Assembly: GCA_035701465.1 (NCBI GenBank)
Contig: DASSMU010000238.1
Coordinates: forward strand, 1 to 47,978
Source of the DNA: Solirubrobacterales bacterium
GTDB lineage: Bacteria; Actinomycetota; Thermoleophilia; Solirubrobacterales; 70-9
DNA length: 47,978 nucleotides
Direction of reading: 5' to 3'
A program made the translations under genes and the position numbers. The notes under the pieces were generated by a model that searched no databases, was not told the DNA's origin, and worked only from the letters and a program-made list of their open reading frames with translations. Every line of letters starts with the position of its first letter. The first letter of the stretch is position 1. This document shows positions 34,134 to 40,767 of this stretch, one piece after another.

Positions 34134-34318
34134 CAGCGGGCGAGGCGGAACATCAGCTGGTCCTCGTAGCACCAGCTCCAGTCCTCGCCAGGCTCGACCG
34201 AGCGGATCACCGGGTGGCCGGTCTCGGCGTTGTGGGCAGTGGCGTGCTTGCCCTCGGAGTTGTCGCAGCAGCCGATGTGACCGCAGTCCTGGCACATGCG
34301 CAGGTGCACCCAGCTCAT
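34133..34318 (-). CDS. UBP-type zinc-finger protein (true 5' end probably upstream, at or before 34408)
   Basis: WVHLRMCQDCGHIGCCDNSEGKHATAHNAETGHPV matches zf-UBP. The first CxxC of the domain (GCEEC) is encoded in frame upstream of the first ATG. Confidence 0.7.
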   Translation of the reverse strand: MSWVHLRMCQDCGHIGCCDNSEGKHATAHNAETGHPVIRSVEPGEDWSWCYEDQLMFRLAR

Positions 34319-34456
34319 CCCCAGCTTCAGGCACTCCTCGCAGCCGGCGATCTCAACCGGGGGGTCGAAGATCTGGATCGAGCGGATGTGCGAGCAGGAC
34401 GGGGCCGTGCGCCCACCTTAGCTCAAGCAATCGCGCCTCTCGGCCGATGCGAAAGC

Positions 34457-36478
34457 ATGAACCAGCCGCTCTCCCGCCGGCTGACCCCCGTAGTTGTCGC
34501 CTGGCTCGGCGCCCTCGCGGTGCTCCTCGCCGCCTACGCCGCGGTGATCCTCGGCCCGATCGGCGGCTCCTCGGTTCAGGACGCGTTCGGGCGCTGGGCC
34601 TACGACGTCGTCGTGCTCGGCGCCGCGGCGGCGGTGCTCGTCAGAGCCGCATGCCTTCCCGGCGAGCGACTCGCCTGGCTCAGCCTCGGAGTCGGGCTGC
34701 TGCTCTGGGCACTAGGGCAGACCTACTACTCGGTCGCCCTCTACTACGCCAGCCCGGCCCCGTTCCCCTCGCCGTCCGACGCCCTCTTCCTCGCCTTCTA
34801 CCCGGCGACCTTCCTCGCCCTTGTCCTGCTGCTGCGCAGCCGCTCGGCGCGGGTCGACTCGTTCGCCTGGGTCGACGGCCTGATCGGGGCGCTCGCCGTC
34901 GCCGCCGTCACCGCGGCGCTGATCTTCCCGCCGGTGCTGGATGCGCTCGGCGGCGACACCCTGGGCGTCGCGGTCAGCCTCGCCTACCCCTGCGCGGACC
35001 TGGTCCTCCTGGGACTTGTCGCCGGCGCCCTGACCACCTCCCGCTGGCGCGTCCACAGCGCCTGGGGACTGATCGCCGCGGCGCTGATCCTCTTCGGCGC
35101 CGCGGACGTCGTCTACCTCTCCGTCGCCGGGCAGTCGACCGAGGCGCTCAACCTGGCCAGCATCGGCTGGCCCCTGGCCTTCCTCCTGCTCGCCGGCGCT
35201 GCTTGGCTGCCCCACGCCACGGTGGAACCAACGCGGAAGCGCAGCGGACGCTCGATCGTCCTTCCGATCCTGCTCGCCGCCAGCGTGATCTGCCTCCTGG
35301 CCGTGGGCAACCTGACGCCGATCGGCGCCGTCGCTGTCGCGCTCGGCATCGCCTCGCTGCTGGCCGTGCTCGCCCGCCTCGCCGCCACCTTCTTCCTCAA
35401 CATGAGGATGCTCGCCGCGACCGAGCGGGAGGCGGTCACCGATTCCCTCACCGGCCTGCGCAACCGTCGCAGCCTCGTCGCCGACCTGGACCGGGTACTC
35501 GCCCGCCGGGGCGGGACGGCTCACGTCCTGGCCCTCTTCGACCTCGACGGCTTCAAGTCGTACAACGACAGCTTCGGTCACACGGCGGGCGACGAACTGC
35601 TCAAGCGCCTCGGCGCCAGCCTGGCCGCCGCAACGGAGCCCTGGGGCAAGGCCTATCGCCTCGGCGGCGACGAGTTCTGCATCCTCGCCCCGATCGGCGA
35701 GGCAAAAGCAGACGTGATCGTCAAGGCTGCCGAGGGAGCCCTCTCCGACCGCGGCCCCAGCTTCTCGATCAGAGCCTCGTGGGGCAAGGTCGAGTTGCCC
35801 CGAGAAGCCGAGACGGCGGCCGATGCCCTGCGGATCGCCGACCGCCGCATGTACACGCAGAAGGGACAGCGCAGCGACTCCGCCCTGAGTCAGACCCGCG
35901 GCGTGCTGCTCGGCCTGCTGCGCGAGCGCGAACCGGGGCTCGACCGCCATCTCGGCAACGTGGCGAGCCTCGCCGCCCAGATAGGCCGCGCGCTGGCGCT
36001 GGAAGCCGAGGACATCGACGTCCTGATCAGGGCTGCGGAGATGCACGACGTCGGCAAGGTCGCCGTCCCCGACGAGATCCTCCACAAGAGCGGCCCGCTC
36101 ACCGAAGCGGAGCGGGACCTAATGCAGAAGCACACGCTGGTTGGGGAGCGCGTGCTGGCCGCCGCTCCGGCGCTGCTGCAGGTTTCGAAGGTCGTTCGCT
36201 CCAGCCACGAGCACTGGGACGGCAGCGGCTACCCGGACGGCCTCGCCGGGACCGCGATCCCGCTCGGGTCGCGCATCATCCTGATCTGCGACGCGTACAG
36301 CGCGATGACCGGACCGCGGCCATACGGCCCGCAGATGACCCCAGCCGAAGTGATCGAGGAGATTCGGCGCTCGGCGGGGCGGCAGTTCGATCCCGACCTG
36401 GTGGAGCTCTTCGTCGCGAAGGTCGCGCCGGGCGCCGCCGGGGCGCAGGCAGGCGAGGAGACGAGGGTCTCCACGTAG
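34457..36478 (+). CDS. Membrane sensor protein with GGDEF and HD-GYP domains (c-di-GMP turnover)
   Basis: About 9-10 N-terminal TM segments. Contains RLGGDEFCIL, HDVGKVAVP and HHEHWDGSGYPDGL. The ATG at 34457 is in frame within ORF 34214..36478. Confidence 0.85.
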   Translation: MNQPLSRRLTPVVVAWLGALAVLLAAYAAVILGPIGGSSVQDAFGRWAYDVVVLGAAAAVLVRAACLPGERLAWLSLGVGLLLWALGQTYYSVALYYASPAPFPSPSDALFLAFYPATFLALVLLLRSRSARVDSFAWVDGLIGALAVAAVTAALIFPPVLDALGGDTLGVAVSLAYPCADLVLLGLVAGALTTSRWRVHSAWGLIAAALILFGAADVVYLSVAGQSTEALNLASIGWPLAFLLLAGAAWLPHATVEPTRKRSGRSIVLPILLAASVICLLAVGNLTPIGAVAVALGIASLLAVLARLAATFFLNMRMLAATEREAVTDSLTGLRNRRSLVADLDRVLARRGGTAHVLALFDLDGFKSYNDSFGHTAGDELLKRLGASLAAATEPWGKAYRLGGDEFCILAPIGEAKADVIVKAAEGALSDRGPSFSIRASWGKVELPREAETAADALRIADRRMYTQKGQRSDSALSQTRGVLLGLLREREPGLDRHLGNVASLAAQIGRALALEAEDIDVLIRAAEMHDVGKVAVPDEILHKSGPLTEAERDLMQKHTLVGERVLAAAPALLQVSKVVRSSHEHWDGSGYPDGLAGTAIPLGSRIILICDAYSAMTGPRPYGPQMTPAEVIEEIRRSAGRQFDPDLVELFVAKVAPGAAGAQAGEETRVST

Positions 36479-37020: not shown

Positions 37021-37034
37021 GCCGGCCGGCTCAG
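37017..37034. terminator. 18-nt perfect palindrome spanning both convergent stop codons
   Basis: CTGAGCCGGCCGGCTCAG contains the greA TGA and the minus-strand TGA of 37031..37303. Confidence 0.35.
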
Positions 37035-37303
37035 AGAACGATTTCCCGGTCGGGAGACGAGAGGGCCGCACCTGCGGCCGCAATCAGCGCATCCGCGTCC
37101 AGGTCATACTTCCTCGCGGCGTCTCGTAGGGACCTGGCGGTGTCCCCATTGGTACCTATCACGTCGATTCGCACCGGCCTGCCGTCGAGGATGCCGACGA
37201 CCAACCAGTCATCGACCTCGTCATCGCCGTAGTCGACCCCCTCCACCCGATCGATGAGATCGATCTGGATCGTGTCGCCCTTGCTGTCGTAATCGGCTCT
37301 CAT
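37031..37303 (-). CDS. DUF2283-like small protein (putative antitoxin partner)
   Basis: The MRADYDSKGDTIQIDL N-terminus resembles DUF2283 (xYDxExDxLxIxL). The ATG overlaps the upstream TGA (ATGA). Confidence 0.55.
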   Translation of the reverse strand: MRADYDSKGDTIQIDLIDRVEGVDYGDDEVDDWLVVGILDGRPVRIDVIGTNGDTARSLRDAARKYDLDADALIAAAGAALSSPDREIVL

Positions 37304-37512
37304 CTTCGCCTCCGATGAATTGTGACGATCGGCTCGGGGTCGTCAAGCGCGACGACGACTCGCACCCGCTCTCCCCGGATGCGCCCGATGTATGTCCACT
37401 TCCCGTTTCGGCCGAGCTCGATGCGCTCCGGCGCGGCCACGAGCCTTTCGGCATCGGCAATCGTCGCTCCGATCTCCCGCGCCCGGTTCTTCGCGTGTCG
37501 GGTGAAGCGCAC
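37300..37512 (-). CDS. DUF4258-like small protein (putative toxin partner)
   Basis: The MRFTRHAKNRAREIG N-terminus resembles DUF4258 (xFTxHAxxRxxERGI). Confidence 0.5.
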   Translation of the reverse strand: MRFTRHAKNRAREIGATIADAERLVAAPERIELGRNGKWTYIGRIRGERVRVVVALDDPEPIVTIHRRRR

Positions 37513-37649: not shown

Positions 37650-37874
37650 ATGAGCAGAGTCATGGCCGACTGTCGCCGCTTCGAGAGCGAAAGCAACTGC
37701 ACCCTGACGATCATCGGCGAGGAGGACGAGGTGGTCAACGCCGCCGCGGAGCACGCTGCTTCCGTCCACGGGCATGAGGACACACCGGAGCTGCGCGAGC
37801 AACTCCGAGGCATGCTCGAGCCCGAGACCGCCTACGCCCCCGGCGAGCGCCAGGCCGAAGCCTTCCCAGGCTGA
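37650..37874 (+). CDS. DUF1059-like small protein
   Basis: CRRFESESNCTLTIIGEEDEVVNAAAEHAASVHGHEDT matches my memory of DUF1059. It is followed by an imperfect hairpin at 37888-37929. Confidence 0.6.
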   Translation: MSRVMADCRRFESESNCTLTIIGEEDEVVNAAAEHAASVHGHEDTPELREQLRGMLEPETAYAPGERQAEAFPG

Positions 37875-37965
37875 AAGCCTCACCTTCGTTGAAGGGTTTT
37901 CCGGCCTATAGCGCCGAAAATCCTTCAACGAGCGCTTGTCGGGTTGTAATGCTACGCTGTCGCAC

Positions 37966-38208
37966 ATGGAGATCGGCGTACGTGATCTGCGCAACCGCAC
38001 GGCCAGCGTCATCGACGCGGTCAAGGCCGGTGAGCGAGTTGTGCTGACGGTCAACGGTGACCCACTGGCGGACATCGTCCCCCACGGCCAGCGCACCCGC
38101 TGGCTCGGGGGCGCCCAACTACGCGAGCAACTCCGCGACCGTGCTGCCGATCCGGCACTGCGACAAGAGCTCGACGACCTCGCCGGCCAGACCCTCGACG
38201 AGCTTTGA
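37966..38208 (+). CDS. vapB: Phd/YefM-type antitoxin
   Basis: MEIGVRDLRNRTASVIDAVKAGERVVLTVNGDPLADIVP. The stop overlaps the PIN gene start. Confidence 0.75.
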   Translation: MEIGVRDLRNRTASVIDAVKAGERVVLTVNGDPLADIVPHGQRTRWLGGAQLREQLRDRAADPALRQELDDLAGQTLDEL

Positions 38209-38612
38209 CCGAGCAAACCGCCGGCCTGCTCGACACCTCGGTTTTCATCGCCCGAGAGACCGGTCGGCCCCTCGGCGAATTGCCAGATCGGGTCGCCGTC
38301 TCGGTAGTCACCATCGGCGAGCTTCAACTCGGCGTCCTGAACGCGGCCGACGACGCCACCCGCGCACGTCGCGCCGACACTCTCGCCCTGGCCAGGTCAG
38401 CCGATCCGATCCCGATCAGCGAGGCGGTGATGACCAGCTGGGCCCGCCTGGTCGCAGACTGCAAGACAGCCGGCATCCACCGCGCCATCAAGCTCACCGA
38501 CACCCTTATCGCTGCCACTGCCGTAGAGCATGGCCTCCCAGTCATTACTCAAGACGAAGACTTCGCCACGATTGCCAGTGCACATACGGCGCTCGCGGCG
38601 CTAAGAGTCTAG
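38205..38612 (+). CDS. vapC: PIN-domain ribonuclease toxin
   Basis: The TTG start overlaps the antitoxin TGA. GLLDTSVFIARE N-terminus and C-terminal VITQDEDF. Confidence 0.85.
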   Translation: MTEQTAGLLDTSVFIARETGRPLGELPDRVAVSVVTIGELQLGVLNAADDATRARRADTLALARSADPIPISEAVMTSWARLVADCKTAGIHRAIKLTDTLIAATAVEHGLPVITQDEDFATIASAHTALAALRV

Positions 38613-38662
38613 ATGGGCTCCGAAAACGACACTCGGATCCAAAAAACGATTGCGTCTTCGTC

Positions 38663-39700
38663 CTAAATATCGTTTTGTAGTTTAAAACCAAGCGTTGTTG
38701 CGAGCTCAGAGTCAAAGAGCAACTCTGGAAACTGTTTTGTAAGAACTTCCTGATTCTCTACCCAGATCAAGCAAATACAGACAACGGTATGGGAGAGTTG
38801 TTGCGTGGTGGTACCGATTGCGCCTGCATGTTTTTTGAGCAGCCGTTGAACCTCTCGCCCCTTCAAAGCCTTCTCGAGCTGACCGCGGGTTCGAATACCG
38901 ACCATGCCGAGGGCGTCTCGCAGAAGCTTCTCAATATGACTCGCCGTACCTCCAATAGGTGAAACGGTTCCACGAAAAGCCGCACCTTCTGGCAGCAAGG
39001 ATTCCAGGCAACCGACGAGCCGGGCCGCATCAAAGCTGACATCGTGGTCCTTGTCCGCCTCATATGTAGATCGATAGTGATCGATCAGGTTCTGCCCACT
39101 TTCCCTGATCCCCAAGAAGGCATAGTCAAGGGTCTCGAGACTGCCCGCCACCGCTGCCAACCGCCGACCCAGCTCGGGCGGGAAATCCACACCCGACTTA
39201 TACTGAACCTCATGCTCGATAGTTGCCCAGGCATCCTGCAGAAGACTCCTAATCTGAATTTCGAACCACTGCGACCCTAGGTGCTTTCTCACCGCAGCCT
39301 CATGCTCGGGTAGGTGGACAACCAAGTGCACAGACCGATAACCGAAAACGTCAGCGCCAAGCAAATCCAGCCGGTCGTAGGACTCGTCGTCGTCCACAGT
39401 CAGAAGTGGACGCAGATGCTCGGCCGCACTCTCTACTCGGTCTGGATAGTTGGTTACCACCCGGACCCCAATTAGATCCTTGATTTCAACGGCCGGATCT
39501 GTGTACTCCTTCTGCCTCAGCTTGTCGAGCAGAGAGTACGGATCCTTGGCACGCGCCGTGACCGCCTGGATGCCCGCACCAGTCCCCTCAAGAGCAAGCG
39601 ATACGACCGCGCGAGCTTCAGCTGCCGCGCCCTCGTAGGAGGAAAACTGCGCCTGATAATCCTCAAAGAACTGAAGAGTCGTCTGTGGTAGGAGCGACAC
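38663..39700 (-). CDS. RelA/SpoT-domain nucleotide pyrophosphokinase (small-alarmone-synthetase-like) with an unassigned C-terminal region of about 170 aa
   Basis: Synthetase motifs ARAKDPYSLLDKL, IKDLIGVRVV, FGYRSVHLVV and EIQIRSLLQDAWATIEHEVQYK. No HD hydrolase, TGS or ACT region. GTG start 10 nt after the upstream stop. Counted lines of the islet (both within the adjacent DUF262 gene) gave about 48-57% G+C. Confidence 0.8.
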   Translation of the reverse strand: MSLLPQTTLQFFEDYQAQFSSYEGAAAEARAVVSLALEGTGAGIQAVTARAKDPYSLLDKLRQKEYTDPAVEIKDLIGVRVVTNYPDRVESAAEHLRPLLTVDDDESYDRLDLLGADVFGYRSVHLVVHLPEHEAAVRKHLGSQWFEIQIRSLLQDAWATIEHEVQYKSGVDFPPELGRRLAAVAGSLETLDYAFLGIRESGQNLIDHYRSTYEADKDHDVSFDAARLVGCLESLLPEGAAFRGTVSPIGGTASHIEKLLRDALGMVGIRTRGQLEKALKGREVQRLLKKHAGAIGTTTQQLSHTVVCICLIWVENQEVLTKQFPELLFDSELATTLGFKLQNDI

Positions 39701-39710
39701 CTTATGCGCA

Positions 39711-40718
39711 TTAATCGGAATCGACCACGTGGACGAGTGTGTTGATTCGCGTCAGGCGTGGCCGTATGTTGTCAGTTTGCCTACTCGCCGCCAGTAGATA
39801 GCGACTCGCCATCCGGGGCGGACGCTTTCGGTTAAGCAGTCGTTCGAATTCCTGAAGTTTCTTCCCAGCAACGTCCCAATCAACTGAAAGCACACCTGTA
39901 GAAGATGCCAGACGGTCCAACGCACCGATCAGCGCATAGAGGTCGACTGGTTTGCGAAAACGACTTTCACTAAAGTCGGGGAGAGCTTCCTGAATCCAGT
40001 TCAGATACCTCTTCAAACGCTGTTCCGCTTTGCGCCCGCCTGGAAACCTCAGCTGATAGAGACCGTAGTACAAATCGAGGGCGGCCTTCTTGTCTTGAGG
40101 TCCCTCAATTAGAAGAATCGCTAGCTCTCCGGAGAACTCTACCGCGCGCATTCGTTTAAGCTGGGTAGGGGTAAAGATCCGGGCCTCCTGCCATATGTCC
40201 CACCGCCCCAGACGCTCGACGAAGTCGTAGAACGCGCCTTCCTCCCGGGCATGGCGCAGCTCCTGTGGTGAGAGGCGTACTACGTATTTATTCATCCGAA
40301 CGAAAAGGTCCCGTACATCACTGTCCGAATATCCAGACAGCTCCTCGACTACGAAGTCATAACTCAATATTCGGCTACGGAGTCGTTCGGGGAGCTGCGA
40401 GAATTTCTGCCCTTTCAGGGAACTATTGGTGGTTTGAGTTAGTCCAAACCGATTGTCGATAAATTCGAACACGGCGGTCAAGCGTTGCTGCCCGTCGATG
40501 ACCTTGTACGAGGGCCGTCCGGTCTGCGCAGACGTGTACCGCTGGAGAAAGAGTTGGGGTATAGGCCTATTCTCAACGATTGTGTCGAGCAAGTACGCCT
40601 TTGCCGCACGGGGCCAAACGCTATTGCGCTGAAACTCCGCTGCTAGCTCGAGTTGGCCATCGTCATAAAGCTGTCGCAGGAGGGCGACATCCTTGGTGGT
40701 CGTACGCCGATCAGGCAT
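39711..40718 (-). CDS. DUF262 (ParB/Srx-fold, GmrSD N-terminal-like) protein without a DUF1524/HNH nuclease half
   Basis: FQRNSVW and VIDGQQRLTAVFEF motifs. It is 335 aa, with no HNH-like motif visible in the C-terminal half. Confidence 0.8.
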   Translation of the reverse strand: MPDRRTTTKDVALLRQLYDDGQLELAAEFQRNSVWPRAAKAYLLDTIVENRPIPQLFLQRYTSAQTGRPSYKVIDGQQRLTAVFEFIDNRFGLTQTTNSSLKGQKFSQLPERLRSRILSYDFVVEELSGYSDSDVRDLFVRMNKYVVRLSPQELRHAREEGAFYDFVERLGRWDIWQEARIFTPTQLKRMRAVEFSGELAILLIEGPQDKKAALDLYYGLYQLRFPGGRKAEQRLKRYLNWIQEALPDFSESRFRKPVDLYALIGALDRLASSTGVLSVDWDVAGKKLQEFERLLNRKRPPRMASRYLLAASRQTDNIRPRLTRINTLVHVVDSD

Positions 40719-40767
40719 GCGGAAACCTTAATCGTTCCCAAGGACGACTCCAAGTGTTTGAAACCCG

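Follow-up and report, generated by a model that had tools for sequence, protein, structure and literature searches.

A conserved pairing of a DUF262 protein with a RelQ-like alarmone synthetase: a candidate anti-phage module of mostly uncultured bacteria

The window analysed here, i.e. the whole stretch of 47,978 nucleotides (positions 1 to 47,978 of contig DASSMU010000238.1, assembly GCA_035701465.1) from a Solirubrobacterales bacterium, contains a pair of closely spaced genes on its minus strand. The first (39711..40718, 335 aa) codes for a DUF262/ParB-like protein, the proposed sensor or regulator, as judged from its open reading frame (ORF), Pfam and PADLOC matches and a structural model; the second (38663..39700, 345 aa) codes for a RelA/SpoT homologue (RSH), the proposed effector, as judged from its ORF, a Pfam match and an AlphaFold2 (AF2) model. 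We estimate at about one half the probability that the pair is a conflict module, complete in itself and horizontally mobile, whose most likely function is anti-phage defence by abortive infection or growth arrest. Its role in defence, control by activation in preference to neutralisation, the signal that is sensed and the product are all what we infer from sequence. An earlier reading of the same DNA, hereafter the original prediction, had described two minus-strand ORFs 10 nt apart, and the ORFs and the junction sequence are as it described them. They are real genes rather than chance ORFs, because both have many homologues: 896 matches for the DUF262 protein (best non-self E value 2e-161) and 89 for the RSH (1e-133).

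The pairing itself is strictly kept. When 185,579 species-representative genomes were scanned with the DUF262 alignment, 46 loci were found, and in 36 out of 36 genome loci where the DUF262 protein is at least 40% identical, an RSH homologue lies directly downstream on the same strand. The conservation of the pairing, which the original prediction had made a test of its interpretation, is thus found at all 36 reference-genome loci and also at every informative metagenome locus. The carriers fall into at least 12 phyla or classes, with hosts as diverse as Solirubrobacterales, Acidimicrobiia, Asanoa, Galbitalea, Terriglobia, Bryobacterales, Binataceae, Ahniellaceae, Methylovirgula, Variovorax, Thermomicrobiales, Chthoniobacterales, Sericytochromatia, Latescibacterota, Archangium and Rokuibacteriota. 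The reverse test was a metagenome scan with the RSH alignment: matches to the RSH C-terminal domain all have a DUF262 gene upstream where the contig extends that way, the sole apparent exception (locus L060) being a 5'-truncated RSH remnant devoid of the RxK motif. In 40 intact pairs the spacing varies from -14 to +14 nt, and the ORFs measure 331-370 aa (with one longest-ORF call of 462 aa) for the first gene and 331-371 aa for the second. The two proteins have also diverged together: comparison of the DUF262 and RSH distance matrices gave a Mantel correlation of r = 0.72, a value reached by none of 2000 permutations, and r = 0.74 once the close Solirubrobacterales clade was removed. DUF262 identity is 55-60% irrespective of phylum, and the listed homologues, which come from many phyla, are 57-75% identical to the window protein.

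The DUF262 protein matches the Pfam family GmrSD_N (PF03235, 1.8e-19) over aa 16-157, and the Pfam search found no DUF1524 nuclease (PF07510) in it; the domain call of the original prediction and the absence of the nuclease half therefore stand, and the motifs it quoted are all in the translations. The AF2 model (mean predicted local distance difference test, pLDDT, of 85) consists of a ParB/Srx-like N-domain followed by an all-helical C-half, and its best Foldseek matches are BrxU and ParB CTPase domains. The N-domain (aa 1-160, 40239..40718, minus strand) is a ParB/Srx-like domain predicted to bind nucleoside triphosphates (NTPs), with invariant ParB-type motifs: E28-F-Q-R-N32..W35, D75-G-Q-Q-R79 and F139-x-R141-x-N143. 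The helical C-terminal half (aa 161-335, 39714..40238, minus strand) has invariant residues of its own (E205-x-P-Q-D-K-K211, Y217-Y218, R253, Q314-T-D-N317, P320-R321 and R324), among which the family alignment shows no invariant His. Both halves are basic, with isoelectric points of ~9.4 and ~9.7, respectively, and the C-terminal half is probably a DNA-binding, ParBDB-like domain rather than a nuclease. In PADLOC the protein matches NsnA (3e-34) and PD-T4-2_A (3.5e-17), both partially and through the N-terminal aa 5-198. These matches fit the layout, ParB-DUF262 followed by a 'ParBDB' DNA-binding domain, that has been described for NsnA, DndB, GmrSD and SspE (PMC12065111).

The second gene encodes a synthetase without hydrolase or regulatory domains, as originally proposed: Pfam RelA_SpoT (PF04607) is matched at 5.8e-20 over aa 50-170, neither an HD hydrolase nor TGS/ACT domains were found by the Pfam search, and the synthetase motifs are present. 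A caveat concerns the toxic small alarmone synthetases (toxSAS) and CapRel that the original prediction had cited: by profile the synthetase is much closer to the non-toxic RelQ and RelP. A family profile built from 51 members and compared with the PDB matches RelQ at 4.7e-25 (profile positions 7-205) and RelP at 1e-19 to 2e-17, CapRel only at 7e-4, through the synthetase core alone, and long Rel enzymes at ~1e-3. The AF2 model, which is a confident one (pLDDT 92, predicted template modelling score 0.85), is made of a synthetase core (aa 1-170), a helix (175-214) and a helical C-terminal domain (225-337), and its first ~200 residues are superposed by Foldseek on RelQ/RelP with template modelling (TM) scores of 0.75-0.81. 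Profile, Foldseek and invariant residues together define a RelQ/RelP-like core at aa 1-172 (39185..39700, minus strand). The invariant residues, R50, K52, S56, K60, D75, R80, Y121, E147, Q149, H163, Y167 and K168, align with conserved catalytic and substrate-binding motifs of RelQ. The protein does not pass the NCBIfam YjbM equivalog cut-off (score 69.5 versus 320). Its PADLOC match to PDC-S33 (1.8e-13) covers only positions 67-176 of the 349 of that profile, mainly the synthetase core; the match reaches ~49-219 in related RSH proteins, with the same core-only pattern in family members and in other RSH families. The net charge of the core is -12 in the window protein and ranges from -6 to -12 over this protein and its close relatives, an acidity that would be unfavourable for tRNA binding. 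A nucleotide acceptor may be favoured over tRNA on these two grounds, both of them soft: the core is RelQ/RelP-like and it is strongly acidic.

Beyond the core, the original prediction had counted about 170 C-terminal residues as unassignable; the RelQ-like fold runs on to ~205-214, so that the extra part is ~130 aa long. The two are joined by a long alpha-helical linker (~aa 173-216, 39053..39184, minus strand; helix 175-214 of the model), the first part of which aligns with the C-terminal helix of RelQ. There follows a family-specific, all-helical C-terminal domain (aa 217-345, 38666..39052, minus strand), defined by the model and by its single architecture, for which searches of Pfam, of the PDB with the profile, and with Foldseek gave no Pfam or PDB match. 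The comparison with the CapRel antitoxin domain that had been suggested showed no resemblance by Foldseek. A profile of the domain found 192 clusters among 1.84 billion representatives; full-length matches are all 326-399 aa long and carry the domain at ~205-345, and within these 192 clusters other architectures are absent, leaving only fragments and one deletion fusion. It is the most divergent part of the pair (mean p-distance of 0.70; the core has 0.58 and DUF262 0.46), and its divergence is correlated with that of DUF262 at r = 0.70-0.72, compared with r = 0.63-0.65 for the synthetase core. We propose that it is a partner-binding or regulatory domain. That it could be a DNA mimic finds no consistent support in its net charge, which is not uniformly acidic across the 51 family members; among Solirubrobacterales relatives the domain is acidic (-6 to -12).

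Many other RSH proteins of ~350-390 aa with a RelQ-like core, ~28-41% identical to the window core, were seen at metagenome loci (L064 and L067-L127). In those tested with a hidden Markov model (HMM) of the family's C-terminal domain, the C-terminal regions are unrelated to it; among the other ~350-aa RSH families, those that were sampled gave this HMM no significant match in their C-terminal regions. Most of these genes have no adjacent ORF on the same strand; some are preceded by other genes, e.g. by DUF6119 in L081 or by an AAA_15/AAA_21 ATPase in L111. All those tested match PDC-S33, again mainly in the synthetase core. From their sequences, a synthetase followed by a variable C-terminal domain looks like a broad and largely unexplored class.

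Relatives of the DUF262 protein outside the family indicate what else can stand in the place of the RSH. The nearest out-group proteins share 29-33% identity with the window protein, in most cases over almost the full length, and occur in Rhizobium, Mesorhizobium, Sphingomonas, Psychrobacter and Pedobacter and on an Asticcacaulis plasmid. Where the locus was examined (L038, L039, L046 and L129), the DUF262 gene is followed by a gene for a Ser/Thr protein kinase of ~290-330 aa, and the other out-group loci have a downstream ORF of kinase-like size on the same strand; this distant DUF262 family comprises L038-L047 (e.g. L039:5986-8106) and L129:3986-6132. At several of these loci there is an SspD-like gene as well (PADLOC SspD at 1e-132 in L129, PAPS_reduct in L039), and several have in addition a ~1100-aa ATP-binding protein and a 1819-aa FtsK-like protein. 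This distant family may serve the Ssp phosphorothioate system as an alternative partner for restriction. In PD-T4-2, a validated defence system, a nuclease-less DUF262 protein is paired with a HEPN protein (PMC10952713, PMC9519451, PMC12065111). Because of the kinase partners in the relatives and of HEPN in PD-T4-2, DUF262 can be viewed as a sensor with swappable effectors, which supports the suggestion, made in the original prediction, that the nuclease effector has been replaced by a separate one. A further DUF262 pair was seen in Escherichia phage vB_EcoM-689R6 (L128:2941-4652), where a 350-aa DUF262 protein (NsnA 8.5e-32, PD-T4-2_A 9.5e-14) is followed by a 216-aa protein without PADLOC match, the two genes lying directly downstream of a prophage integrase; by its sequence, this pair may be PD-T4-2-like with an unrecognised effector.

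The computational findings that the original prediction had named as able to refute it were all looked for, and none was obtained. As to known systems, the window pair appears to be without a name, as the original prediction had it. It has no PADLOC 2.0 model, the only matches being the domain-level, partial ones to NsnA, PD-T4-2_A and PDC-S33, and a literature search that left aside subscription-only papers and some supplements revealed no paper mentioning DUF262 together with toxSAS, RelA_SpoT, alarmone synthetase or GTP pyrophosphokinase. GmrSD, PD-T4-2, Dazbog, SspE and Menshen are among the DUF262 systems named in the Menshen survey, where RelA/SpoT is not mentioned. PD-T4-2 is likewise made of two genes, the first of which encodes a nuclease-less DUF262 protein of ~350 aa (PMC9519451), but the partner here is an RSH pyrophosphokinase, the downstream gene has no HEPN match, and the PD-T4-2_A match spans the ParB-like half only (profile positions 42-231 of 363). 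Menshen (NsnABC) provides the best PADLOC match, NsnA, which shares the ParB-DUF262 plus helical C-terminal layout (PMC12065111); however, there is neither an NsnB ABC-ATPase nor an NsnC inPIN-nuclease gene in the window, where the RSH alone follows. With GmrSD, BrxU and SspE the protein has in common an N-terminal DUF262 NTPase domain with its DGQQR motif, and BrxU is its best structural match; it differs by the lack of a DUF1524 His-Me finger nuclease, by an all-helical C-half without invariant His, and by having its effector as a separate protein. On the RSH side, the pair resembles the toxSAS toxin-antitoxin (TA) operons (FaRel, FaRel2, PhRel, PhRel2, CapRel), which also associate a stand-alone synthetase devoid of hydrolase with a second gene in a conserved two-gene operon (PMC7229694), but its core is much closer to RelQ/RelP than to CapRel and the partner is a large conserved NTPase instead of a small antitoxin or small alarmone hydrolase (SAH). 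The RSH model deviates from CapRel SJ46 (7ztb and 9erv) by a root-mean-square deviation (rmsd) of 11-20 A, with TM scores of 0.33-0.42, and Foldseek finds the C-terminal domains unrelated. RelQ and RelP, the housekeeping small alarmone synthetases, share the fold and all catalytic residues, but they are single-domain proteins of ~210-230 aa without the extra ~130-aa domain, the obligatory DUF262 partner, the foreign base composition and the patchy distribution found here. Since each of the two parts belongs to a known kind and the swapping of effectors is already an established theme, the pair is not categorically new.

The closest functional analogue, by comparison of layouts, would be PANGU type I, described in an April 2026 preprint (bioRxiv 10.64898/2026.04.06.716658). 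According to that work, a YejK-like nucleoid-associated protein, Pag1A, is encoded together with Pag1B, a toxSAS of the GRel subfamily composed of a synthetase, a helical linker and a C-terminal domain and present as an inert homotetramer. Degradation of the chromosome by phage nucleases sets Pag1A free to bind Pag1B through the C-terminal domain of the latter, and the resulting 2:1 complex makes pppGpp; neither gene is toxic alone. The sensor scaffold is reported with varied effectors, with which it co-evolves, and DUF262 is never mentioned in the preprint. Both systems are bicistronic, with a DNA-binding protein (here a probable one) first and an alarmone synthetase second and with both proteins of ~340-355 aa; both effectors consist of an N-terminal synthetase, an alpha-helical linker and a C-terminal domain (here by the AF2 model), and in both the partners co-evolve. 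This likeness is drawn from the preprint's description. The sensors differ: the one described here has a ParB/DUF262 fold with an intact NTP site and matches PF03235 only, not NA37 (IPR007358). The C-terminal domain, moreover, is not uniformly acidic, and because of this the 'DNA-mimic' mechanism of PANGU would not be directly transferable. NdpA/YejK (NA37) was not matched by the tested upstream ORFs of the sampled related metagenome RSH genes either, and those ORFs are mutually unrelated.

That the module is mobile is suggested by its AT-richness at all loci, its occurrence in at least 12 phyla or classes, flanks that are not conserved and a trxB-greA site shared with one other genome only. 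In 46 out of 46 related loci the pair is AT-richer than its flanks, by 9 points of G+C on average. Among the flanking ORFs of 39 loci no conserved family was found, and hence there is no conserved third gene; the flanks are mostly housekeeping genes (ThiC, ribonucleotide reductase, enolase, GlnA and others), with occasional defence or mobility neighbours (one DRT reverse transcriptase, a few methyltransferases, PglX, TrwC, DUF4917). The trxB-greA site occupied in the window is common to one other genome only, a Solirubrobacterales metagenome-assembled genome (MAG; loci L001/L002). Between these two syntenic genomes TrxB is 84%, GreA 82% and DUF262 73% identical but the RSH only 55%, indicating that the effector evolves much faster than its neighbours. 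The carriers are nearly all uncultured MAGs, the cultured one being Asanoa sp. NPDC049573 (L030). RSH matches on plasmids, where inspected, had uninformative contexts.

Copies in decay exist as well. In L027:6001-7507 an internal deletion has removed the DUF262 C-terminus and RSH residues 1-118; the truncated RSH of L060 mentioned above (L060:1427-2263) has no DUF262 gene; and in protein P0228, 168 aa long, residues 1-60 of DUF262 are fused to the C-terminal domain of the RSH. In four other loci, a single frameshift splits one gene of an otherwise intact pair, the DUF262 gene in L035:6001-6998 and L037:6001-7003, the RSH gene in L033:7018-8021 and L065:3197-4206. Those of L033, L035 and L037, which are long-read MFD MAGs, may be sequencing errors and not pseudogenes.

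How such a module might work can be sketched as follows. In an NTP-dependent manner, the DUF262 protein would keep DNA under surveillance, be it for foreign or modified DNA or for the condition of the chromosome, and would control the RelQ-like synthetase via the private C-terminal domain of the latter, as Pag1A does with Pag1B. Once activated, the RSH would move pyrophosphate from ATP onto a nucleotide acceptor, and the resulting alarmones, of the (p)ppGpp or (p)ppApp type, would shut growth down. A more specific and rather doubtful version makes the ParB-fold NTPase an allosteric switch: it would load onto DNA in an NTP-dependent way, like ParB clamps, and on meeting foreign, modified or degraded DNA would engage the C-terminal domain, by which an inert RelQ-like oligomer would become active; the product might feed back on the ParB-type pocket, and the device would have arisen independently of the YejK-based PANGU. 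Several observations weigh against the proposal of a mobile anti-phage module. Association with defence islands is weak, as few of 139 flanking ORFs match defence or mobility families, and searches of curated phage and plasmid records and of 2.9 million viral contigs yielded no close relatives. Conservation is higher in the sensor than in the effector, the opposite of what is seen for many immune sensors. The net charge of the C-terminal domain varies from -15 to +10 across the 51 family members and is 0 in the window copy. Asymmetry of gene decay, considered as a means of telling an activator from an antitoxin, was discarded because the counts are symmetric and confounded by the long-read frameshifts. 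Finally, the acceptor specificity of the RSH, like its toxicity, its neutralisation and the defence against phages, is putative.

The main rival is a classical TA module, in our view unlikely. In such a module the RSH would be a constitutively active toxSAS and DUF262 its antitoxin, acting by binding (type II) or by hydrolysis of the product at the ParB-type NTPase site (type IV-like, compare the SAH antitoxin ATfaRel). The order of the genes with the putative neutraliser first, the overlapping or nearly overlapping ORFs and the strict co-occurrence are those of toxSAS TA operons (PMC7229694), TA modules adjoin the pair in the window, and all three deletion remnants have lost the catalytic N-terminus of the RSH together with DUF262 sequence. 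However, a highly conserved, basic, two-domain NTPase of 335 aa is unlike the known toxSAS antitoxins, and the core is closest to RelQ and RelP, which are non-toxic when overexpressed (PMC7229694). Neither gene of the analogous PANGU is toxic alone, and two loci combine a frameshifted DUF262 gene with an intact RSH gene, but these belong to long-read MAGs where sequencing errors are likely. The mobile anti-phage module proposed above has also to be set against a CapRel-like arrangement, which we consider quite improbable: the RSH would act as a pyrophosphokinase on the 3'-CCA of tRNA and would hold in its C-terminal domain both an autoinhibitory antitoxin and a sensor of phage proteins, DUF262 being accessory or a second sensor. 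The architecture, a synthetase plus a C-terminal domain of ~130-150 aa, is similar, CapRel is among the Foldseek matches, and evolution is fastest in the C-terminal domain, as would be expected of a phage-sensing surface. But the match is weak (profile 7e-4 versus 1e-25 for RelQ), the superposition is poor (rmsd of 11-20 A) and the catalytic core is strongly acidic (-6 to -12) in the window protein and its close relatives; moreover, the obligatory DUF262 partner and its co-divergence with the C-terminal domain are left unexplained.

The least probable alternative, in our opinion, is that the pair has no role in conflict and is a niche stress-signalling module, tying for example (p)ppGpp output to the state of the chromosome or nucleoid via a ParB-like DNA-binding NTPase. 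A RelQ-like synthetase, flanking genes that are mostly of housekeeping nature, a trxB-greA position kept in two Solirubrobacterales genomes and the failure to find phage or plasmid copies would all be in keeping with it. Such a role is, however, difficult to reconcile with the foreign base composition in 46 out of 46 loci, with the patchy distribution over at least 12 phyla at a DUF262 identity of 55-60% whatever the phylum, or with an effector that diverges far faster than the adjoining housekeeping genes. The family is, in addition, rare (192 clusters) and has decayed copies, and the characterised DUF262 proteins all act in defence (PMC10952713, PMC12065111).

In the window the two genes alone make up a low-GC islet (38613..40767), delimited from the G+C windows and extending between two stop codons, that of a convergent PIN gene (38612) and that of trxB (40768). 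Of what the original prediction said on base composition, the islet is borne out, G+C being 0.52-0.57 in 500-nt windows over 38500-40750 against 0.64-0.73 in both flanks, but not the figure of about 65% for trxB, which is at 0.68-0.70 in the same kind of windows. The DUF262 ATG is preceded by a 49-nt spacer (40719..40767, minus strand) past the trxB stop, with AAGG 8 nt ahead of the start. No convincing promoter of its own was found for the pair by a promoter scan whose yield did not exceed the shuffled expectation, and read-through transcription from trxB is possible, judging from this arrangement. At the junction (GAT TCC GAT TAA, tgcgcataag, GTG TCG CTC), the TAA at 39713-39711 is separated from the GTG at 39700 by the 10-nt spacer tgcgcataag (39701..39710, minus strand), a distance implying translational coupling; the GTG start is in line with the homologues, which open with M/V-SLLP. 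Past the RSH stop a weak terminator-like element can be read (38641..38661, minus strand), with a 4-bp stem ACGA/TCGT followed by T6. It is below the threshold of the terminator scan, the output of which was not above shuffled expectation, and as a terminator it is only suggestive.

The original prediction had also placed three TA-like modules beside the pair. One is clear, a Phd/YefM antitoxin with a PIN (VapC) toxin (37936-38612, plus strand), and one is plausible, a DUF4258 ORF (37300-37512) with an overlapping 90-aa partner (37031-37512 together, minus strand); the third is a lone DUF1059 ORF (37650-37874, plus strand) and does not qualify. All of them lie between the RSH gene and greA. 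Since the syntenic site of L001 has none of them, small accessory modules seem to accumulate at this spot. Next to greA, the translation of a 754-aa ORF (34214-36478, plus strand) starts with a multi-pass membrane region ahead of two motifs, GGDEF (RLGGDEFCIL) and one that is HD-GYP-like (HEHWDGSGYP), and from these motifs it is probably a protein of cyclic di-GMP turnover.

The module is likely to have been missed by functional screens in E. coli pangenomes because it is mostly limited to uncultured soil and freshwater lineages. If our interpretation is true, the RSH would be a new class of effector for DUF262 sensors, the known effectors of which are nucleases and HEPN proteins. It would also mean that a DNA-bound sentinel controlling an alarmone synthetase has evolved a second time, independently, and would suggest that immunity has repeatedly, and not just once, come to couple the surveillance of DNA to the synthesis of (p)ppNpp. 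With its two genes in 2.1 kb, the module is compact and easy to synthesise, and it offers a clean system for finding out what nuclease-less DUF262 proteins sense and how a partner switches RelQ-type enzymes.

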